From an uncultured Rhizobium sp. (GTDB lineage: Bacteria; Bacteroidota; Bacteroidia; NS11-12g; UBA955), in the NCBI GenBank assembly GCA_964415065.1, contig CAYPYX010000010.1:864-64863 (forward strand): a stretch of DNA of 64,000 nucleotides, in the 5' to 3' direction. Every line of letters starts with the position of its first letter. Position 1 is the stretch's first letter. The notes below the pieces were generated by a model. That model ran no database searches. It worked only from the letters and a program-made list of their open reading frames with translations, and was not told the origin of the DNA. Positions 1 to 9,869 of the stretch are shown here, one piece after another. Position numbers and translations under genes: made by a program.

Positions 1-1427
1 ATTGTCAAAGTTAGAGTTGAAATTAAAGCAGATAAATCGGCTAGTTCTTTTTTCAATTGCTCTAAAAGGTCAATTCCTTTAAGTTGTTGGGTTAATAATT
101 CTAATTGCATTTCTAAGCCACCTTTGAGAACAAATAAATCATCAATTTTATCATCTCTTGTAGATTGACTTTCGAAAATTGCAATATCTAATTCTTTTTG
201 TTGTATGTTTAATTTCTCTTTCCACTCTGGCAACACTCCACGAAGTTCAACAAGTTTTCTTTCCTTGTTGAGTAGCAAGCCTTCAGATTCTTTTATTTGG
301 AGTTCAATTTCTTGCTTAAGCCTCTTGGCGTGTGTTCTTTCTTCATCGTCCGATAATGGTTGTTTACATAAAAAACAATGTCCTTCAGGAATATTATTTT
401 CAAGAGGGTTCAAGCATTGAGGACAATTTGTAAGGGTTAGCTCCCCCAAAACTTTCTTTGTCAGTATTGAGTTGTCAAGGTCTATAATTCTTTTTTTAAG
501 GGTGTCAATAAAGCTTCTAGAATCAATAATATCTAAGTCAAGTTGATAAACATCAGTTGTCAATTCCCTAAGTTTTTGTTTCAAAGGCATTAACTCTTTT
601 TGTATTTTCTCAACTCTTGTAGCTGATTTTTTTGCAATTTTAAGTGTTTTTGCTGCTTTTGTTTTGGTAATTTCAGCTTGTATTTTATCTAATTCAGCTT
701 TTAGTTTTTCAATTTCTTTGTTCAGGCCTTCAAATGTTGTTGCATTACCTGATCTTGAGTATAGTTTATTTAGGTTGTCAAATTCTCGTTTCTTTTCATC
801 ATAGTCTTTATTTGCTTTTCTTAATGTTAACCTGTCATTATATAGAGAATCGTCATAAATGCCTAATAACATTTCGGATATAGCAAGTCGAATAGCAGGT
901 AAGTCAAAATTTTCTCTCCTAAATAAACATTGAGTTGGCGAATCTTGGTCAATATAAATTAACCTTAAAAGCTGATGTATAGTAATATTATTGTCTGTCT
1001 CACTTCTGGTTTCTGTAAATGAAAGTGCCTTGAATAAAATATTTGTGTAACTCACTCTTTCGTCACTTTGTGAGTATGAAAATGTTTTCCAATTTATTGC
1101 ATCTGTTTTTGCTTCCTCAAAAGTTCCCCAAAAAATACTCATCGGTTGTTTTAAGAAAGTAGTAACTGTTCTCTTTAACGTATAAGTTGCGTTGTTTATA
1201 GAAACCTCAGCAAAAACTTCTTTGCATTTTAATGATTCCGCGTTCCAGTTATTGTAGTCCCCACCTAAAGCATAAAAAATGAAATTTGAAATGGTTGATT
1301 TACCTGAACTGTTTTTGCCACGAATTATATTAACACCTTTATGAAAAACTTCATCGTATGCAACTGAGCCTTGATGTGTCAAAACAACAAGTCGATTTAA
1401 AAATAGGTATGATTTATTTGGGGTCAT
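1..1427 (-). CDS. SMC/Rad50-like ABC ATPase (LmuB / ABC-3C ATPase-like), N-terminal 475 codons; 3' end lies beyond the window
   Basis: Absent from the ORF track because no stop lies in the window. My translation from ATG 1427..1425 stays open to position 1: MTPNKSYLFLNRLVVLTHQGSVAYDEVFHKGVNIIRGKNSSGKSTISNF... Walker A GKNSSGKST at 1293..1319, Q-loop-like YIDQDSP, then a long K/E/L-rich coiled coil with CPQC-x12-CFLC at 366..425. The ATG overlaps the upstream stop (ATGACCCCAAATAA). Confidence 0.85.
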   Translation of the reverse strand, partial: MTPNKSYLFLNRLVVLTHQGSVAYDEVFHKGVNIIRGKNSSGKSTISNFIFYALGGDYNNWNAESLKCKEVFAEVSINNATYTLKRTVTTFLKQPMSIFWGTFEEAKTDAINWKTFSYSQSDERVSYTNILFKALSFTETRSETDNNITIHQLLRLIYIDQDSPTQCLFRRENFDLPAIRLAISEMLLGIYDDSLYNDRLTLRKANKDYDEKKREFDNLNKLYSRSGNATTFEGLNKEIEKLKAELDKIQAEITKTKAAKTLKIAKKSATRVEKIQKELMPLKQKLRELTTDVYQLDLDIIDSRSFIDTLKKRIIDLDNSILTKKVLGELTLTNCPQCLNPLENNIPEGHCFLCKQPLSDDEERTHAKRLKQEIELQIKESEGLLLNKERKLVELRGVLPEWKEKLNIQQKELDIAIFESQSTRDDKIDDLFVLKGGLEMQLELLTQQLKGIDLLEQLKKELADLSALISTLTLT

Positions 1428-1923
1428 ATTTGAATTCTAATAGTCCAGTCCTAGCTTTCCAACCTTTGTCACCAAAGAGAGGTAAGTTAACTAAATCGCT
1501 TGTCACTAATTTTATTACATTCCCCTTTTGATTTGCTAAATCATTGAGTTTTGCTTTTAATGCTTCAGGTATTTCCTTGTCAGTTTTTTTGACTTTGTTT
1601 TTTGACAATAGTTTTGAATCAACAAAACCATAAGATGCAAGACATTTAATGGCTGAAAGTTGATACGTTTTCATTCTTTCAAAAATTTGCTTTTGGTCTG
1701 TAATTTCTTCGTATGGGTTCCTTTTTTCTTTAAAAATATTGTCTTTTAAATGCTTTAAATCTGAGGGGAAAGACATTTCTCTTACTAGGTTTGGGAAAGT
1801 TGTATAGAAATCCCAAATTCGTAATTTGTCAATATGAATTTCGTCCTCTTTGGCATATGAAAGAAGTTGAAGCATCCTGAAAATGCAATTGTATAAATCG
1901 AAGGCAGGATGATATACTAACAT
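1414..1923 (-). CDS. 169-aa helical protein, candidate middle component (LmuC / ABC-3C MC-like)
   Basis: Complete ORF. It starts 4 nt after the upstream stop and overlaps the ATPase start by 14 nt. No enzymatic motif seen. The role is inferred only from its position between the putative effector and the SMC-like ATPase. Confidence 0.7.
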   Translation of the reverse strand: MLVYHPAFDLYNCIFRMLQLLSYAKEDEIHIDKLRIWDFYTTFPNLVREMSFPSDLKHLKDNIFKEKRNPYEEITDQKQIFERMKTYQLSAIKCLASYGFVDSKLLSKNKVKKTDKEIPEALKAKLNDLANQKGNVIKLVTSDLVNLPLFGDKGWKARTGLLEFKYDPK

Positions 1924-1927
1924 ATTT

Positions 1928-2497
1928 TTAAGTCCATTTAATATGACAATTACCAGTTAAAAAGTGTAGCATTCCATTTATGTCGTGAGCCGTAAATCCT
2001 AAATAGTTTTGGTCAAGTTCGTTTAATAAAGAATTTACAAGTCGCTCAGTTATCATTGAATTTATTAGTTGCTCATCTTCGCCTTTCTCCAATAATGGAT
2101 GAATTTCGTTTTCAAAATAGGAAATTACCAAACCTAATAAATGTACGTTAATTTGTTGTGCTGCCTCAGAAAATTGAAATTTATAGAGTTTTCTGTGGTA
2201 ACGTTCTTTTGCTTCAATGGCAAATTCAATAAATCCTTTTCTTCTATTTGCTGCTGTTAATTTTTCTTCAAGTCCAATTACATCATCTTTCTTTTTGTTG
2301 AAGTAGTAATCTAAATCTTCAATAAACGCAGTTAGTTGTTGATCGTTCTCTTGTTCTTGTTTAAACTTTTTAAGCAGAATGCCCATATAGGAAGATTTAG
2401 AGCCAGAAAACTCATAGTTTCTTGACTTGTCAATATTGCCAGCAGCAACGTCTCCGCCAATTTCGCTATTTTCAATAGATATTTTTTCGTGTGGCAT
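1928..2497 (-). CDS. 189-aa helical protein in the effector slot of the ABC-3C/Lamassu-like operon (function unknown)
   Basis: Complete ORF. The N-terminal tag is ISIENSEIGGDVAAGNI and the rest is helical, ending LTGNCHIKWT. No catalytic motif recognised. Tightly linked to its neighbours. Confidence 0.7.
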   Translation of the reverse strand: MPHEKISIENSEIGGDVAAGNIDKSRNYEFSGSKSSYMGILLKKFKQEQENDQQLTAFIEDLDYYFNKKKDDVIGLEEKLTAANRRKGFIEFAIEAKERYHRKLYKFQFSEAAQQINVHLLGLVISYFENEIHPLLEKGEDEQLINSMITERLVNSLLNELDQNYLGFTAHDINGMLHFLTGNCHIKWT

Positions 2498-2503
2498 TTA
2501 TTA

Positions 2504-2680
2504 TTATTTTTTTATGTCTCGTCCAGCAACATCACCACCAATTTTGCTGTCTTTAATATTTACTTTACCTGAGTTTTTATTGCTGGTCTTTTTCATTACA
2601 AATTTAAAGATTACTCCTGCTGCAGTAATTGTAGCAATAACAGCTAAAATTATTTGTGTTACGTTGTCGCTAAAGTTCAT
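2504..2680 (-). CDS. 58-aa single-pass membrane peptide (uncalled, below the track cutoff)
   Basis: My translation: MNFSDNVTQIILAVIATITAAGVIFKFVMKKTSNKNSGKVNIKDSKIGGDVAGRDIKK. ATG at 2680..2678 and TAA at 2506..2504, 6 nt before the next ATG. One TM helix followed by a tail that repeats the IGGDVA motif of the next protein. Confidence 0.6.
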   Translation of the reverse strand: MNFSDNVTQIILAVIATITAAGVIFKFVMKKTSNKNSGKVNIKDSKIGGDVAGRDIKK

Positions 2681-2832
2681 ATTTTAAATTGATTAAATTA
2701 TCTGTGTATGTTGGTTTGTTAAAATTACGGCTAACCTATTTATCTGTGCACCATTGCTTAAATAAATCCAAGCATTTAGCAAATATCCCAACCATTGTAA
2801 ATCTATACAATAAAAAAGGTAAATAAAAACGG

Positions 2833-2861
2833 TAATTATACCCTGTTTTAGGGTATAATTA
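2833..2861 (-). terminator. Hairpin downstream of the HTH_17 gene (putative Rho-independent terminator or operator)
   Basis: Perfect 12-bp stem taattataccct / agggtataatta with loop gtttt. On the minus strand it is followed by the T-rich run ccgtttttatttacctttttt. Confidence 0.5.
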
Positions 2862-2894
2862 ATAGTTGACGTTTAAATAGCATAGCATCTCGAA

Positions 2895-3260
2895 TTAATC
2901 TTCATCTTCCTTCAAGCTCACCATGGCTTGAATCATCCTTTGTATATCTTCCTGGAAAGAACTGACCTTCGGAATTTCAGGAATATGCATCAATCCTTTC
3001 ACTTGATTAACTGCAAAGTAATTCCGTTTATTGATTCTGGTAGGAGTTAGTTTGCCTGCTTTGATGTAATTATCCATGGTGCGTCGACTGACACGAAGCA
3101 TCGCCATCACGTCATAAGTGTCCACCCATTTTGAGGTGAAATCGTCAACAGGATTTTTCAAGCTGTTGATTTCGGCTTGCAAATTTGTGAGCATCGATTT
3201 CAATTCGATGAACTGCTCCAAATTGAAAGTTTTCTGCATTTTTTGCATCCATATCGACAT
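2895..3260 (-). CDS. Helix-turn-helix DNA-binding protein, HTH_17 / excisionase-like (mobile-element type)
   Basis: WVDTYDVMAMLRVSRRTMDNYIKAGKLTPTRINKRNYF matches the MerR-superfamily Xis-like HTH common in Bacteroidota integrative elements. Confidence 0.75.
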   Translation of the reverse strand: MSIWMQKMQKTFNLEQFIELKSMLTNLQAEINSLKNPVDDFTSKWVDTYDVMAMLRVSRRTMDNYIKAGKLTPTRINKRNYFAVNQVKGLMHIPEIPKVSSFQEDIQRMIQAMVSLKEDED

Positions 3261-3470
3261 TTTGAGTGTCAGAAATATGAAAACATTAATAACAAATGAA
3301 TTAGAGCTTAAAAGTTAACAAAATATGTGCAACAAATCACTTTGAGTATAAAGCATGAACATCAAAGGGTTTAGAATATCAAAAAAGTATAAAAATGAGA
3401 TACAAGCTCCAACAGCTTAAATTATTAGTTATATTTAGGTGTTATATCAGCCGTATACTTTCACTTCCAC

Positions 3471-4475
3471 TTAACTCAAAAGATAATTTCTTTTTGTTTG
3501 ATACATCATTAAGTAACCACGCTTATTTGCTTCAGTTAAGAACGAACGGTTTGTTAATACTTCCACGAATGGTTGTTTTTCCAAATACATGGACATTATT
3601 TTTTCGATTCTTTTTTCAGTAACCCCAATGCGTCTCCCAAATTCTTGAAAATCACTTTTATTCGGATGCATGCTTTTCTTATATTGATCGCTTTTAAAAT
3701 CATCGGCAAATAAACCTTTATCTAAAGCAAAATCAGAGTCATCAACATGCAATTTGGTATTCAACAAATCATAAATTGGGCTTAACAGGTAATCGCCTTT
3801 GGATGATTCTAGTAACGAGAAATTTTTCAAGTGCGCATCACCGTTTGAAAATAGAAAGTTGAATAAAACCAATGAAAAATACTTTTCAATTTCGACACGC
3901 CATGCTGATACATATTTTTGAATCAACAAGCCAGCTTCCTCATAACTGAAGTCATACTTAAAATTTGGTCCTGCGTTTTCACTGGTTTTTCCAGCTAAGG
4001 TTGCAAAATCTTCTTTGCCCCATTTTGAGCCATCGGCTTTTAAATCAAAGCGTTTAGTGATGTAAGCTGGCGAACCATTTTTGAAAAATACCATGGCGTT
4101 TTCTGCCGTGTTTAAGCCATATATTTGTTTGGCTATCTGCATCGTTAAATGTTCGTTGGCAGGAACTTGGTCAACTTTTTTTAAATCCCTAGGTATTGGC
4201 TTGAGGATGTATGTGCCTTGTTCTCCTTCCTTAGTTAATCGCAGTATGTTTTTCTCCAGAACAAAACTTAATTTTTCCTGTACACCCGATATGGAAATGC
4301 GCTTGCGATTTTCCATAAAAAGTTCGGCGACTTCTTCATTTTGCTGTGGCTGATCGTAAGACAAAACATGACTTACTTTTTTACCGTTAAATAAATTACG
4401 AAGGCAACTGGGACTGTATGTTGAAAAACCTTCAGCCAATTTTCCAGGACAATAGTGCAATTCTTTTAAATTCAT
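3471..4475 (-). CDS. hipT: HipA-family Ser/Thr kinase toxin lacking N-subdomain 1 (HipT-like)
   Basis: Gly-rich loop RISISGVQEKLS (4287..4295 encodes S61-I-S63) and catalytic motif NGDAHLKNFSLL. At 334 aa it is shorter than full HipA. Its ATG overlaps the upstream stop (ATGA at 4472..4475). Confidence 0.88.
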   Translation of the reverse strand: MNLKELHYCPGKLAEGFSTYSPSCLRNLFNGKKVSHVLSYDQPQQNEEVAELFMENRKRISISGVQEKLSFVLEKNILRLTKEGEQGTYILKPIPRDLKKVDQVPANEHLTMQIAKQIYGLNTAENAMVFFKNGSPAYITKRFDLKADGSKWGKEDFATLAGKTSENAGPNFKYDFSYEEAGLLIQKYVSAWRVEIEKYFSLVLFNFLFSNGDAHLKNFSLLESSKGDYLLSPIYDLLNTKLHVDDSDFALDKGLFADDFKSDQYKKSMHPNKSDFQEFGRRIGVTEKRIEKIMSMYLEKQPFVEVLTNRSFLTEANKRGYLMMYQTKRNYLLS

Positions 4476-4801
4476 ATTGACTTGATTGGTTTTACAGTAA
4501 TAGCACCAATTGTATCGTATTGTGCGGTGGCTGCAAGTAATCCAAAGTGATCTTCCTCGTCAATTCTCAATTGTATGCTTTGTAATTTTCTATTGACACC
4601 TTCACTGAGCATATTGAAAAAAAATGGGAATAAGAATTCGCTCCTGTATTCCTTTTGCGACTTCGGCAGTGTTAAGCTAATAGCAGGATTATTGTCGTCT
4701 ATTAAATACTTCTCGTCGTACTTAAAAATATACTGCTTTCGATTTTCTTCAATGAGCAGTCCTGCCAAAATGCCGTTGCGGTATATTTCTAATGTTCGCA
4801 T
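4472..4801 (-). CDS. hipS: HipA N-terminal domain protein (HipS-like)
   Basis: 109 aa. MRTLEIYRNGILAGLLIEE...YIFKYDEKYL...AISLTLP matches the N-terminal coupling subdomain of HipA, here encoded as a separate gene just upstream of the kinase. Confidence 0.82.
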   Translation of the reverse strand: MRTLEIYRNGILAGLLIEENRKQYIFKYDEKYLIDDNNPAISLTLPKSQKEYRSEFLFPFFFNMLSEGVNRKLQSIQLRIDEEDHFGLLAATAQYDTIGAITVKPIKSI

Positions 4802-4804
4802 TTA

Positions 4805-5014
4805 TTAAGGTTTCTTTTTTACTTGAAAGGTGAGTTCCATTCCCAATACTTCAGCTAATTTATTGATCACATCTAACGAGGGATTACCTTGTCCCTTCTC
4901 TAATTTGTACAAGGTATTAATGCTGATTTGAGCCAATTCAGCCAAGTGAGGTTGGGTTATTTCCAGATCCTTACGTCTGTTTTTAATGACTTTGCCTAAG
5001 TCCGTTGCTAACAT
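4805..5014 (-). CDS. hipB: XRE-family helix-turn-helix transcriptional regulator (HipB-like)
   Basis: 69 aa. LGKVIKNRRKDLEITQPHLAELAQISINTLYKLEKGQGNPSLDVINKLAEVLGMEL is a canonical Cro/C1 HTH. First gene of the three-gene module. Confidence 0.9.
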   Translation of the reverse strand: MLATDLGKVIKNRRKDLEITQPHLAELAQISINTLYKLEKGQGNPSLDVINKLAEVLGMELTFQVKKKP

Positions 5015-5147
5015 TATAATGTGATTTATGAGTCAAAGCTACAAATTTTAATTTAAATACACAATAAAATCACAATATAGTGTGATATTATTGTAACTAA
5101 TCGACAATCAAAGTATAGATACATGCAAAATCACATTATAATGTGTG
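5009..5147. promoter_or_regulatory. Three ATCACA-N6-TGTGAT-type palindromic operators in the hipBST promoter region
   Basis: Site A is acattataatgtgat at 5011..5025 and overlaps the hipB ATG. Site B is atcacaatatagtgtgat at 5069..5086. Site C is atcacattataatgtg at 5130..5145, whose core cacattataatgtg is a perfect palindrome. Centres are about 60 bp apart. Confidence 0.55.
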
Positions 5148-5227
5148 TTGTCCATTCTCACCCATCTCATTATTTTTTCAAGCACCCAATCCCCAATTAA
5201 TTAAATCACTTCAATTAATATTTTTAA

Positions 5228-5911
5228 TTAATTCACAGTTGCTGATTTTGCTTGAAAAACTAGGAAATCAGTATTGCCTCCAGTGCCGAATACGCTAATG
5301 TTGCCTTTGACTAATTTGGGTTTTTTACAAGCCATACAACCCATTTTAACAATGCATTGAGCGCTTATAGTTTGGCCACTTGTTATTGCTGATACATCGC
5401 AATCTGCATTAGGTTCAGAAGAAGCGGATGCATCACAATCACAAACTATTTTAGCATCACCCTCCGAACCAGAAGAACCACCCGATCCCAATTCTGAACA
5501 GACGCGTAACCCTAAATCGGTTTTGAAATAAAGGATATACCAATTGAACTGAGAATCAATGGAATAACTAAAATTTGAATTGTTATTTTCATCCATCTGT
5601 ATGGATTTCCAATTTGAAAAAATATGAGAGGTTTGCAAAATGGAGCCAATTGTGGTAGACTTAGAAATCGAAGCGTTGCCGAATTGATCATAAGTTAGCG
5701 AAATGGTGATTTTTTCAGTCGGATTTTCGCTATTCATAGCAGAAAATTGATGTATTTGACCCGGACTGTACCAAGCGCTATTCGGTGATTCTTTAGAAAA
5801 GGAACTAATAAAAAATAGTACTGGTATCAAAAGATACTTACTTGTTTTTTGATTGGAAGTAATCATTTTAATGCGGTTCATAGAAGCGAATTTGCTGATG
5901 GATTTTTTCAT
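5228..5911 (-). CDS. Hypothetical secreted protein with a Cys-rich C-terminal region
   Basis: Complete ORF with an N-terminal hydrophobic segment. No family recognised. Confidence 0.55.
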   Translation of the reverse strand: MKKSISKFASMNRIKMITSNQKTSKYLLIPVLFFISSFSKESPNSAWYSPGQIHQFSAMNSENPTEKITISLTYDQFGNASISKSTTIGSILQTSHIFSNWKSIQMDENNNSNFSYSIDSQFNWYILYFKTDLGLRVCSELGSGGSSGSEGDAKIVCDCDASASSEPNADCDVSAITSGQTISAQCIVKMGCMACKKPKLVKGNISVFGTGGNTDFLVFQAKSATVN

Positions 5912-6038: not shown

Positions 6039-7007
6039 TTATTCATTCTTAATAAATTTACCTTTAAATTCTTTATTGTCTTTGAATAGAATGATTTGAT
6101 ATATTCCTTGGGGAAGATTGGTTATATTTATTTGATTTTCAAAAGTTACATCAACAACAAGTTGACCAACTGAGTTGTAGATTAAGGCATTTCCAGAAGA
6201 CATACCACGTACCTTCAAAATATTGTTTGTGGGATTAGGGAAAAGCACCGTATGCTGATCACTTATTTCATCAAACGATACACTCCTAATGGTGTCAATT
6301 AAATCGATTATTTCGATTTCATCGCAGTAGTTCTTAATATTCAAATAGTTAAAAGATTCAGTTGCCGCAAATACAACCATTTGATCCTTGTTGCAAACAG
6401 AAATTAATTCTTGCCAAAATGGCGAATTGTGTCTTATAATTCTAAAAGGTATAAGACCATAATTAGACCCTATTCCTTGAGATGCAGAAAATGGTAAAGT
6501 TACTCTGTTATATCCAGATGAAAGAACCGTATAATATTGTGTTCTTCTTATTTGATTGTCGTGGTACTTAACATTTTTAACACTATCAACCAGCAATTGC
6601 CCGCTTGCTGAATGATTGATTTTGAACGTATCGCCTGCGTTCAAGTTAAAATTATAGATAATTAAATTCTTGACTTCAAAAGAATCATCATATGCATTAT
6701 ACAACGTGCCACTAAAAAATACTGTATCTCTTTTCACTTTTAAGAAATATACGTACGATCGCTGGTTCCAATTCCAATCTTTAGATTCATATAAAACTTT
6801 ATAAAAAGTTTCCATTGAGTTTGCGGAATCCAATAGCACAAGTTCTTTTGAGTAAGACGCAAAACTCAACCCCGGTGTAAGTGAGTGAGCATCGCAGTAC
6901 GTATAATAGGTACTGCTATCTAAATAACTATATTGAGCATTTAAATTTTTGTTACAAATGAATGCTATACTAATGCTGAATAACAATTTTATGTATTTCA
7001 TATTCAT
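6039..7007 (-). CDS. T9SS type A sorting-domain secreted protein
   Basis: Signal peptide MNMKYIKLLFSISIAFICNKNLNA. C-terminus LFPNPTNNILKV...LPQGIYQIILF...GKFIKNE matches the Por secretion tail. Confidence 0.8.
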   Translation of the reverse strand: MNMKYIKLLFSISIAFICNKNLNAQYSYLDSSTYYTYCDAHSLTPGLSFASYSKELVLLDSANSMETFYKVLYESKDWNWNQRSYVYFLKVKRDTVFFSGTLYNAYDDSFEVKNLIIYNFNLNAGDTFKINHSASGQLLVDSVKNVKYHDNQIRRTQYYTVLSSGYNRVTLPFSASQGIGSNYGLIPFRIIRHNSPFWQELISVCNKDQMVVFAATESFNYLNIKNYCDEIEIIDLIDTIRSVSFDEISDQHTVLFPNPTNNILKVRGMSSGNALIYNSVGQLVVDVTFENQINITNLPQGIYQIILFKDNKEFKGKFIKNE

Positions 7008-7288: not shown

Positions 7289-8752
7289 TCAAAACAAATC
7301 ACCGAAATCAAAGCCGTTTTGGATGCGTTCTTTGCCGAGTTTTTGGTGTTCAGCCAGCGACCATAAAACGAATTCCTTCAAGAATAATTTGTCGTGGCCT
7401 GATGCCTCCGGCTGGTAGCTCTTGAGTAAATCTTCCAGCGATTGGATTTTGTTTAATGTCGATTCGTATTCCGATTGTTCGCTGTCGTCGTATAAGAAAA
7501 CACCACCATCGGCAATTAACTCCGCCAGTAATTCATCGTATGGAGTGGATTCGGTCTTCTTGCTCAATTTTTCAATGCGAGGGAAATATGCAGGCATGAG
7601 CGACTTTACCGCAGCACCAATTAATTGAGTCGCTACAAAAGCGGCTCCCTCTTGCTCACCCTCGTAAACCAATTCCACCTTCCCTGTAATAGCAGGGATA
7701 ATTCCCATGAAATCCGATAAACGTACCGAAGTATTCGACTCCCCATTGATCAAAGCACGACGTTCGGCAGTGCTTACCAAGTTTTCTAACATCGAAATAC
7801 TCATACGTGCGCTAACACCGCTTTTGTCGTCTACGTACTCGTTGTCGCGGGCTTCGAAAATAATCTGTTCCAATAAATCTCTGGCCAATTCGGGAATGTA
7901 AACCCGCTGAGATTGCTCCTCGGTTATTTGAGATTCTTGCGCAGAAATTTTACGAGCAATTTCTATGGTTTCTGGATAATGAGTCAGAATTTGTGATCCA
8001 ATTCGATCTTTTAAAGGAGTAACTATGCTTCCGCGATTGGTGTAATCTTCTGGGTTTGCAGTAAATACAAATTGCAAATCCAAGGCCAACCGAAGTTTGA
8101 AACCGCGAATTTGAATGTCGCCTTCTTGTAGGATGTTGAATAAAGCTACCTGAATTCGAGCTTGCAGGTCAGGCAACTCGTTAATTACAAATATGCAACG
8201 ATTGGAACGAGGTATCATCCCAAAATGAATCACACGATCATCCGCATAAGACAATTTCAAATTGGACGCCTTAATGGGGTCAACATCGCCAATTAAGTCT
8301 GCAACGGTAACATCGGGAGTTGCAAGTTTTTCTGTGAAACGATCCGAACGATGCAGCCAAGAAATAGGCGTATCATCGCCTTTTTCTGCCATCAATTCTT
8401 TGGCGAATCGGGATATGGGTTGAAAAGGATCGTCATTGATTTCAGAACCTTGTACGCAAGGAATGTATTCATCCAACAAATTGACCATCAATCGAGCCAG
8501 TCGGGTTTTAGCTTGTCCCCGTAGACCCAGTAAGTTAATGTTATGTCTAGATAAAATAGCACGTTCCAATTCGGGAATAACGGTTTTTTCGAAGCCGTGC
8601 ACACCGGGAAACGAATCCACTCCGTTTTGAATGTTGGCAATCAAATTTTTGCGTAATTCGTCTTTGATGGATTGGTAAGAATACCCCGCTTTTTTCAGTT
8701 CTCCGAATGTTGAAATCATATTATTTAAGTCGTTTTTTTCTGTTGGATTCAT
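7289..8752 (-). CDS. AAA+ ATPase of the Mg-chelatase ChlI / ComM-like type
   Basis: Walker A LLGLRGQAKTRLARL and Walker-B region CIFVINELPDL (Asn where Asp is usual), followed by ALFNILQEGDIQI. An alternative ATG at 8719 would remove the 32-nt overlap with the VWA gene. Confidence 0.82.
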   Translation of the reverse strand: MNPTEKNDLNNMISTFGELKKAGYSYQSIKDELRKNLIANIQNGVDSFPGVHGFEKTVIPELERAILSRHNINLLGLRGQAKTRLARLMVNLLDEYIPCVQGSEINDDPFQPISRFAKELMAEKGDDTPISWLHRSDRFTEKLATPDVTVADLIGDVDPIKASNLKLSYADDRVIHFGMIPRSNRCIFVINELPDLQARIQVALFNILQEGDIQIRGFKLRLALDLQFVFTANPEDYTNRGSIVTPLKDRIGSQILTHYPETIEIARKISAQESQITEEQSQRVYIPELARDLLEQIIFEARDNEYVDDKSGVSARMSISMLENLVSTAERRALINGESNTSVRLSDFMGIIPAITGKVELVYEGEQEGAAFVATQLIGAAVKSLMPAYFPRIEKLSKKTESTPYDELLAELIADGGVFLYDDSEQSEYESTLNKIQSLEDLLKSYQPEASGHDKLFLKEFVLWSLAEHQKLGKERIQNGFDFGDLF

Positions 8753-9869
8753 AATCTTGAAATATCATTTCCCCTAAACCTTTTAAGCCCGTAAAAAAGG
8801 CTTTCCCCTGATTGGCTTCGGTGAATTTATCTACAAATCGTTGAAGGTAAGGGTCTTGGGCAATCATAAAAGTGGTTATAGGGATATGCAATTTTCGTGC
8901 TTGTGCAGCTTGAGTATAACACTGCTCGGTGATGTAGGGGTCTAATCCATTGCTATTCATGTAGTAACGGCCATCGCGTTCTTTAACACAACTGGGCTTA
9001 CCATCCGTAATCATGAAAATCTGTTTGTGTGTATTTTTCTTTCTTCGGAGGATGTCCATAGCGAGCTGAAGTCCCGCAACTGTGTTCGTGTGAAAAGGCC
9101 CAACCTTGAGATAGGGTATGTCTTTGATGGATATTCGCCAAGCATCGTTTCCAAAAACCAAAATATCCAGAGTGTCTTTGGGATAACGCGTGGTAATTAA
9201 TTCTGCCAATGCCATAGCCACTTTTTTGGCTGGAGTGATTCGGTCTTCACCGTATAAAATCATGGAGTGACTGATGTCAATCATCAACACCGTACTCATT
9301 TGACTTTGGTATTGTGAATCTTCTACTACTAGATCGTCTTCGGTTAGTTCAATTTCTGCAGATCCGCTTCTTACGTGAGCGTTTCTGAGACTCTCGGTCA
9401 TGGATATTTTTTCGAGCGCATCACCGAATTGGTAATTGCGATATTCTCCGGTGAGGTCTTCGCCTTGACCTGAAGCTTTGGTTTTGTGGTTGCCGGAACC
9501 ACTTTTGTGAAGATCTCCAAATATTTGTTCTAATGCCGTTTGACGAATGGCTCTTTCCGTTTTGGCGGTAATCCCGAAACCCGATCCCCCGGAATCGTTC
9601 AACTCTTCTCGAATGTATCCGCGTTCTTTCAAATCTTCGATGAAGTCATCGATGGTGTAATTTTCATCCGTAAGTTGATATTCTTTATCCAGTTCTCTTA
9701 ACCAAGCAATGGCTTCATCGAAGTCGCCCGAAGTGTGCGTAATGAGTTCTTTGAAAATATCAAATAAAACATCGAATGGCTCTAAGGATTTAGGTTCAAA
9801 TTCTTTGAAATAAAAACCGCGACTACCAGAAGATGAAATCATGACCTTATCAACGAACATAACCCTCAA
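8721..9869 (-). CDS. VWA domain protein with an intact MIDAS motif, partner of the AAA+ ATPase
   Basis: MIDAS VLMIDISHSM ... MITDGKPS. Sits directly upstream of and overlaps the AAA+ gene. Confidence 0.85.
   Translation of the reverse strand: MRVMFVDKVMISSSGSRGFYFKEFEPKSLEPFDVLFDIFKELITHTSGDFDEAIAWLRELDKEYQLTDENYTIDDFIEDLKERGYIREELNDSGGSGFGITAKTERAIRQTALEQIFGDLHKSGSGNHKTKASGQGEDLTGEYRNYQFGDALEKISMTESLRNAHVRSGSAEIELTEDDLVVEDSQYQSQMSTVLMIDISHSMILYGEDRITPAKKVAMALAELITTRYPKDTLDILVFGNDAWRISIKDIPYLKVGPFHTNTVAGLQLAMDILRRKKNTHKQIFMITDGKPSCVKERDGRYYMNSNGLDPYITEQCYTQAAQARKLHIPITTFMIAQDPYLQRFVDKFTEANQGKAFFTGLKGLGEMIFQDYESNRKKRLK

Follow-up and report, generated by a model that had tools for sequence, protein, structure and literature searches.

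Lamassu defence systems are found in about a tenth of prokaryotic genomes. Two of the protein families treated below, the C-terminal domain CTD9 and the middle component MC5 of the systems called ABC three-component (ABC-3C), were reportedly defined by Krishnan et al. in 2020 (NAR). The short (type II-like) Lamassu / ABC-3C systems DdmABC of V. cholerae, LmuACB of Salmonella (Cap4-CTD7-MC3) and Lamassu-Lipase of E. coli are among the closest known systems. Here we describe a four-gene operon at the left edge of a 64,000-nt stretch of DNA (referred to as the window; GenBank assembly GCA_964415065.1, contig CAYPYX010000010.1, positions 864 to 64,863, deposited as an uncultured Rhizobium sp. and placed in Bacteroidota by GTDB). 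The operon resembles these short systems in its LmuB-type ATPase of about 635 amino acids (aa) with a zinc hook, its small middle component (MC), an LmuA-slot protein that ends in a C-terminal domain (CTD) of the family, the gene order effector-MC-ATPase and its location in a defence islet. It differs in two ways: the LmuA-slot protein (the adaptor) lacks an enzymatic N-domain, and a fourth gene encodes a membrane peptide of 58 aa, which has a motif in common with the adaptor's head. The ATPase, the MC and the CTD are known from ABC-3C and short Lamassu systems; the membrane peptide and the shared, co-evolving motif appear to be new. We propose, with a probability of roughly 0.55, that this is a CTD9-MC5 Lamassu with a split effector, in which the released adaptor would cluster the membrane peptide by motif pairing and so kill the cell.

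The resting and active states of Lamassu have been described by cryo-EM (Li et al., bioRxiv 10.1101/2025.03.14.643221). There the C-domain of LmuA is kept sequestered by LmuB2-LmuC until sensing of DNA ends frees LmuA. The freed C-domain then drives oligomerisation, which activates the effector. A second Lamassu structural study came to the same conclusion on sequestration, release and oligomerisation. The N-domain of LmuA is freely swappable because it makes no contacts in the resting complex. Li et al. also equated MC2-MC8 with LmuC and mentioned lipase-bearing CTD8/CTD9 LmuA proteins. In the Lamassu effector catalogues consulted, every domain named is enzymatic (nucleases, Sir2, proteases, hydrolases, lipase, monooxygenase, HNH and SMEK). 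Amyloid signalling pairs are the other group of described systems to which this locus can be compared. In Bab/Agp (bioRxiv 10.1101/2024.11.07.622273), Bell/NLR and HET-S/NWD2, oligomerisation of the sensor templates the executioner. The described motifs of bacterial amyloid signalling sequences (BASS) are enriched in G, N, Q, V and I and depleted in P, L and K.

Family assignment of the operon

The four minus-strand open reading frames (ORFs) are tightly packed (2680>2504, 2497>1928, 1923>1414 and 1427>1). They encode 58 aa, 189 aa and 169 aa, followed by 475 readable codons that are cut at the window edge. Spacers of 6 nt (2503-2498) and 4 nt (1927-1924) separate the first three ORFs, and the end of the MC5 gene extends 14 nt into the beginning of the ATPase gene (ATGACCCCAAATAA, 1427-1414). 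An earlier model-made note on this DNA (the original prediction), made from the letters and a list of ORFs, had described four packed genes with such gaps and a final overlap, and all four ORFs lie at the coordinates it gave. The features of the operon are listed below.

2504..2680, minus strand: 58-aa single-pass membrane peptide, proposed effector in trans (conserved directly upstream of the CTD9 gene)
2597..2653, minus strand: predicted membrane helix IILAVIATITAAGVIFKFV, residues 10-28 of the 58-aa peptide (hydropathy and charge distribution)
2507..2566, minus strand: shared motif as it stands in the peptide tail, KVNIKDSKIGGDVAGRDIKK, residues 39-58 (tail/head comparison)
1928..2497, minus strand: LmuA-slot adaptor, 189 aa, with a motif-bearing head predicted to be disordered and a helical CTD9 docking/oligomerisation domain (Pfam PF20285, AlphaFold2)
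2426..2485, minus strand: shared motif as it stands in the adaptor head, KISIENSEIGGDVAAGNIDK, residues 5-24 (similar to the tail of the peptide encoded at the same locus)
1934..2275, minus strand: CTD9 domain, residues 75-188, with C-terminal LTGNCH..W (Pfam PF20285 and alignment)
1414..1923, minus strand: middle component MC5 (LmuC equivalent), 169 aa (Pfam PF20291 over the full length)
1..1427, minus strand: LmuB-type SMC/Rad50-like ABC ATPase, first 475 of 635 residues (PADLOC LmuB, Pfam AAA_23)
1293..1319, minus strand: Walker A GKNSSGKST, residues 37-45 (direct reading; conserved in 66 related ATPases)
366..425, minus strand: zinc-hook-like CPQC...CFLC at the coiled-coil apex, residues 335-354 (four cysteines conserved in 66 ATPases)

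The best PADLOC models for the ATPase fragment in the window are all LmuB (PDLC03862, E=4e-39), and a full-length relative gives E=5e-42. The fragment also matches Pfam AAA_23/SMC_N. The gene was completed on a near-identical public contig (NCBI JACCDU011199600.1, locus L091, 167 kb, 11 mismatches over 12,497 nt or 99.9% identity), where it encodes 635 aa. The completed protein carries a signature-like motif FSASS at residue 535 and a Walker B motif FILCD at residues 566-570, which is followed by NMEDKG. The Walker A motif, the long coiled coil and the two cysteine pairs that had been read from the truncated gene are all present, and completion of the ATPase, a check that the original prediction proposed, added the signature-like motif and Walker B to the zinc hook. 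These four motifs are kept across 66 related ATPases. A housekeeping RecN/SbcC/RecF identity was considered and rejected, the nearest NCBIfam housekeeping models (Rad50, SMC) scoring far under their cut-offs.

The 169-aa protein matches Pfam PF20291 (ABC-3C middle component MC5) over its full length with E=1e-51 (175.5 bits, cut-off 25). The PADLOC LmuC model PDLC03869 matches it weakly (E=5.5e-5). With an AlphaFold2 (AF2) model of the protein (pLDDT 82.6) as query, the top two Foldseek matches in PDB were LmuC chains from two separate cryo-EM structures of Lamassu (9uxh_D and 9ny5_C), both weak (E~0.3, TM-score 0.45).

In the 189-aa protein, residues 75-188 match Pfam PF20285 (ABC-3C CTD9) with E=1.6e-32 (112.8 bits, cut-off 27.9). 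The protein has no PADLOC match and no enzymatic match in Pfam or NCBIfam, and the 58-aa peptide has no match in Pfam, NCBIfam or PADLOC, in agreement with the earlier reading that no catalytic motif could be recognised in either. AF2 predicts seven helices over residues 37-182 and disorder for residues 1-35 (pLDDT<50); with this model Foldseek finds LmuA chains weakly (E 1-7). The protein had been described as all-helical and ending in LTGNCHIKWT. The ending is as described, but the description does not hold for the first 35 residues. The terminal LTGNCH..W (window 1931-1960) is invariant in 27 of 27 aligned CTD9 proteins (L180, T181, G182, N183, C184, H185 and W188).

No N-terminal effector domain fused to the CTD, as in ABC-3C systems, and no recognised effector domain, as in the LmuA of Lamassu, was found in the 189-aa protein; all that lies ahead of CTD9 is a head of about 35 residues, predicted to be disordered, and some short helices. 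This is the common form of the family. The 62 word-indexed homologues are 110-205 aa long, nearly all about 190 aa, with CTD9 as the sole domain. An exhaustive CTD9 profile search gave 669 cluster representatives (50% clustering), 300 of them at E<=1e-30, and the short form (<=210 aa) accounts for 144 of the 150 best representatives. The few long relatives align from profile position ~21-35 and carry in front a Cap4_nuclease (P0181) or PNP_UDP_1 (P0209) domain, or an N-terminal domain without family assignment (P0137). In Cap4_nuclease-CTD9 and PNP_UDP_1-CTD9 the CTD is that of our adaptor, beginning at profile position ~35 and running through to the terminal LTGNCH..W. Their effector is fused in cis, whereas here a head of ~34 residues with a motif precedes the CTD and the putative effector is encoded separately. 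Judged from this alignment, the first ~34 residues of the adaptor occupy the slot of the suicide enzyme of its relatives.

The Pfam matches to MC5 and CTD9, the PADLOC match to LmuB and the gene order kept across loci lie far outside what chance would give and bear out the family that the original prediction had named. The protein families place the operon among the true short Lamassu / ABC-3C systems, in the CTD9-MC5 subfamily. The assignment stands because the three findings named beforehand as speaking against it did not appear: the ATPase matches LmuB models instead of clustering with RecN, SbcC or RecF, the homologues of the MC5 and CTD9 proteins adjoin such ATPases in nearly all loci (see below), and the 189-aa protein matches only the non-catalytic CTD9 and no enzymatic LmuA domain.

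The membrane peptide and its shared motif

To follow the operon across genomes we used 78 non-redundant loci with enough flank. They came from a scan that covered 185,579 species genomes and from look-ups of exact proteins. MC5 and the ATPase lie downstream of the CTD9 gene in 77 of them. An ORF of 51-94 aa lies directly upstream of the CTD9 gene in 71, with a median gap of 2 nt. Co-conservation of the four genes, proposed earlier as a check, was thus found, with the gene order kept in 71 to 77 of these independent loci. The hosts are mostly Bacteroidota but also include Acidobacteriota, Verrucomicrobiota, Desulfobacterota, Proteobacteria, Elusimicrobia and Chlorobiota. The peptides follow a common plan: a slightly acidic N-terminus, one hydrophobic helix (the single pass noted earlier for the 58-aa peptide), a basic linker and a C-terminal motif. 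Their mean charge is -1.0 before the helix and +3.7 after it, and the after-side is higher in 74 of 74 peptides. This asymmetry indicates an N-out orientation with a cytoplasmic tail. The dN/dS ratio of the peptide gene is about 0.15, which is purifying selection. A whole-peptide protein search found only 24 close peptides, and the annotation of one sibling record omits the micro-ORF. The 58-aa peptide is a conserved fourth component of the operon.

The tail of the peptide (KVNIKDSKIGGDVAGRDIKK) and the head of the adaptor (KISIENSEIGGDVAAGNIDK) share a motif of about 21 residues with the consensus xVxQxxNxVGGDxAGRDIxK and 58% identity across loci. The head copy had been missed by the original prediction. 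Within the head, residues G15, D16 and A18 are nearly invariant in the family. The two copies drift in parallel from clade to clade, as in the pairs GGDFVGRDK/GGKFTGRDD, KNKVIGGDDNS/NKIIGGDDNS and AGGHIAGGNV/AGGHIAAGSV. Tail-versus-head scores are 60.2 within a locus and 35.2 between loci (none as high in 10,000 permutations; p<1e-4), and the cross-locus score drops from 61.6 to 29.8 with growing divergence of the CTD9 body. Independent drift after a duplication would give equal scores within and between loci; the tail/head match is therefore actively maintained. Gene conversion as the cause was rejected, as there is no excess of shared codons: the same codon is used at 423 of 883 identical aligned residues against 407.7 expected from the codon usage of each locus (z=1.1). 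Possible exceptions are loci L039 and L032. It follows that the match is kept at the protein level and not at the DNA level. It was concluded that selection keeps the two motif copies matched at the protein level.

The same data bear on whether the 58-aa ORF has a function at all. The two motif copies form a direct repeat about 80 nt apart, as would be left by a 5' duplication of the adaptor gene with the ORF as a functionless by-product. Such a relic is hardly credible, since the ORF, its helix, the charge asymmetry and the motif are kept across phyla in the 71 loci under the purifying selection given above, and the tail/head similarity persists despite randomised synonymous sites.

Set against the CTD9 body, G, N, D and V are over-represented in both copies of the motif, which contain next to no L, P or aromatic residues. 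Q is not enriched, and K is enriched in the tail (14.9%). The motif was found in no other ORF across about 90 fetched loci, and a PDB sequence search with the tail or head motif gave no matches. In metagenomes, the pattern GGDQAGRD[IM] was seen in 35 peptide tails and 17 CTD9 heads; the other matches were apparent pfkB-type kinases and junk frames in high-GC DNA. An apparent pfkB-like sugar kinase with NVGGDQAGRDM, judged to be one from its sequence, occurs in L100, L101, L110 and L112 and about 16 more metagenome loci. Its match to the core of the motif is probably coincidental and is a caution for searches that use the motif alone.

Natural variants of the locus show how the motif can be arranged. 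In a Polaribacter sejongensis genome bin (L012, 4887-5558), helix, one motif copy and CTD9 are fused into one protein of 223 aa. The fusion junction lies inside the repeat (GGDVAG|GNIDK), as recombination between the two motif copies would give. The fusion may have arisen by natural deletion between the copies, an assembly artefact being the less likely source. It places the helix at the position of the enzymatic domains of the relatives. Three other loci (L010, 5618-6004; L060, 3441-3719; L061) have the motif twice, with a spacing between, in the upstream membrane protein and once in the adaptor. The doubled motif recalls the pseudo-repeats of HET-s and some BASS executioners.

The peptide might instead be a constitutive anchor: by holding the adaptor it would keep the Lamassu complex at the inner membrane, perhaps so that DNA is met on entry, with killing or interference carried out by something else. 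The coupling of peptide and adaptor fits such a tether equally, the fusion of L012 would likewise yield a membrane-anchored adaptor, and the motif, charged and K-rich, resembles a soluble interaction strand more closely than it does a classical amyloid core. We consider it unlikely. It would leave a system without an effector, as no other conserved effector is found in the operon or its flanks. The N-terminal slot of the relatives holds the recognised suicide effectors Cap4 and PNP and the published Lamassu systems require an effector for defence.

A further group of variants has replaced the motif. In four loci from Prevotella, Firmicutes and related bins (L066, L072, L087 and L089) the membrane peptide is absent and a soluble protein of 144-175 aa is encoded upstream of the CTD9 gene. 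At its N-terminus (e.g., MDINITGNPGTGNTFQEIHIGTVQNYNPNATTVINNNY) this soluble partner matches the head of the adaptor encoded at the same locus. This second motif has about 27-41 residues and is N/G-rich (GNPGTGNT.Q...NYNPNAT; sites at ~2700-5500 in each locus). Given a second type of matched motif, the CTD9 adaptor appears to use exchangeable self-matching motifs to reach separate partners.

The swap also bears on the possibility that tail and head bind the same pocket of LmuB or MC5 and not each other, the peptide being a safety catch or threshold setter of adaptor release. Own-locus co-evolution would be expected if both motifs tracked one pocket, and the LmuA C-domain touches all partner subunits in the solved complexes (bioRxiv 10.1101/2025.03.14.643221). 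In the Prevotella/Firmicutes clade, however, both copies are exchanged for an unrelated motif while MC5 and the ATPase stay homologous. Self-matching motifs could undergo such a wholesale swap easily but a fixed pocket only with difficulty, and the system would again be left without an effector. A shared pocket is in our view quite improbable.

Proposed mechanism of the split effector

In the split-effector reading, LmuB2-LmuC would sequester the CTD of the adaptor during DNA scanning, as in the solved Lamassu complexes. Sensing of DNA ends or replication intermediates would free the adaptor, which would oligomerise via CTD9. The clustered head motifs would then pair with the cytoplasmic tails of the peptides, perhaps by templated amyloid-like beta assembly. 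The gathered membrane helices would form an oligomer that breaches or depolarises the inner membrane, leading to abortive infection. Motif-to-motif pairing, activation dependence and membrane killing are what we infer here beyond the family assignment. The original prediction had offered a membrane-acting or adaptor-only variant; this becomes concrete as a conserved membrane peptide that is linked to the adaptor by a co-evolving motif. The transmembrane effectors of CBASS and Pycsar and the type III CRISPR effector Cam1 are likewise small abortive-infection effectors activated by oligomerisation, in which clustering of membrane helices leads to membrane failure as proposed here. They are triggered by nucleotide second messengers at a fused sensor domain, whereas recruitment here would be protein-protein via the motif.

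The arrangement of the genes resembles that of amyloid signalling pairs. As in Bab/Agp (BASS11, E. coli ECOR25), the Bell/NLR BASS and HET-S/NWD2, the two genes are adjacent and collinear, with hardly any gap between them. One copy of the motif stands at the C-terminus of a small membrane-acting protein, the other at the N-terminus of the partner. This defining layout of bacterial and fungal amyloid signalling pairs was found in 71 of the 78 loci. The motif is likewise about 20-25 residues long and G/N/V-rich, the executioner has occasional pseudo-repeats and the sensor would act by oligomerisation. The locus differs from those pairs in several respects. The partner is a Lamassu CTD9 adaptor and not an NLR/STAND or TPR-GreAB-PIN protein, and the putative executioner is a bare single-pass helix without a Bell/HeLo domain or Pfam match. 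The motif is unrelated in sequence and K-rich, its amyloid character is putative, and the hosts are mostly unicellular Bacteroidota. A prion-like form of the pairing step, in which heads clustered by CTD9 would nucleate a cross-beta fold that spreads to many peptides and yields a lethal membrane assembly, is offered only tentatively.

Several points weigh against the split effector. The mechanistic steps past the family assignment are predictions, and killing by a lone helix that lacks a Bell/HeLo-type domain is hypothetical in such a setting. The K/D-rich motif, with its 14.9% K in the tail, departs from the K-depleted motifs of described BASS. The head is seen by AF2 only as predicted disorder. 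The structural matches of the MC5 and CTD9 models to LmuC and LmuA are top-ranked yet non-significant (E 0.3-7). A literature search gave no title or abstract linking Lamassu with amyloid, and a search on CTD9 gave only unrelated cardiology and RNA polymerase II papers among the matches listed; a prior mention of the peptide in Krishnan et al. 2020 is possible.

Genomic context and significance

The operon lies within a defence / toxin-antitoxin islet. In the window, an HTH_17 (Xis/MerR-like) gene and then a HipBST-like three-gene module lie to its right. The original prediction had placed an Xis-like helix-turn-helix gene and a HipBST module beside the operon, and both were recovered with Pfam. 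The HipS-like and HipA_C kinase genes overlap by 4 nt. A consensus scan for terminators marked one candidate; a sigma-70 promoter scan was uninformative (12 sites, 14.3 expected). The features on this side are as follows.

2833..2861, minus strand: terminator-like hairpin followed by a T-run, between the upstream HTH gene and the four-gene operon (consensus scan only)
3471-5014, minus strand: HipBST-like module, with HTH_3 at 4805-5014, a 109-aa Couple_hipA (HipS-like) protein at 4472-4801 and a 334-aa HipA_C kinase at 3471-4475

To the left of the window edge (L091, 13077-17445) lie an HTH_19 gene and genes for a 193-aa protein, AbiEi_1/AbiEii and a WYL-WCX protein. Related loci adjoin genes for type I restriction-modification, AbiE, ParE, PD-(D/E)XK, HEPN and GmrSD. 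Viral carriage is rare, with four loci in 2.9 million viral contigs. Next to the islet, at 7289-9869 on the minus strand, lie two overlapping genes. One encodes 487 aa and matches AAA_5 faintly, the other encodes about 373-382 aa and has a weak VWA_2 match and an Rv0959_3rd domain; by these matches the pair looks like a MoxR-vWA type. The protein at 6039-7007 (minus strand) carries a Por_Secre_tail domain (type IX secretion sorting) in the annotation of a sibling contig, which is consistent with a Bacteroidota host. The same operon is present in three sibling assemblies that are extremely fragmented and whose contig numbers exceed one million (L091, L092 and L094; GCA_013565655.1, GCA_013573075.1 and GCA_013572825.1). 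The bacterial contig in these may be a passenger in host or metagenome assemblies.

For defence-system finders the locus gives a simple rule: a micro-ORF should be sought just upstream of a CTD9-only gene, where it has no profile and is easily overlooked. Recent structures established the release and oligomerisation of the effector C-domain, and the extension to non-nuclease effectors is a question that this enzyme-free subtype could test. The test would show whether the output signal consists of nothing but CTD oligomerisation, sensed by a separate membrane micro-protein via a private, co-evolving motif. If the prion-like templating is true, the motif would be an exchangeable plug, as the second unrelated motif with a soluble partner in gut Firmicutes and Prevotella suggests. 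The system may add a new bacterial case of death signalling templated by a motif, and if the templating is true, amyloid signalling would reach beyond the NLR-type sensors of multicellular microbes and include SMC-type sensors of unicellular bacteria.

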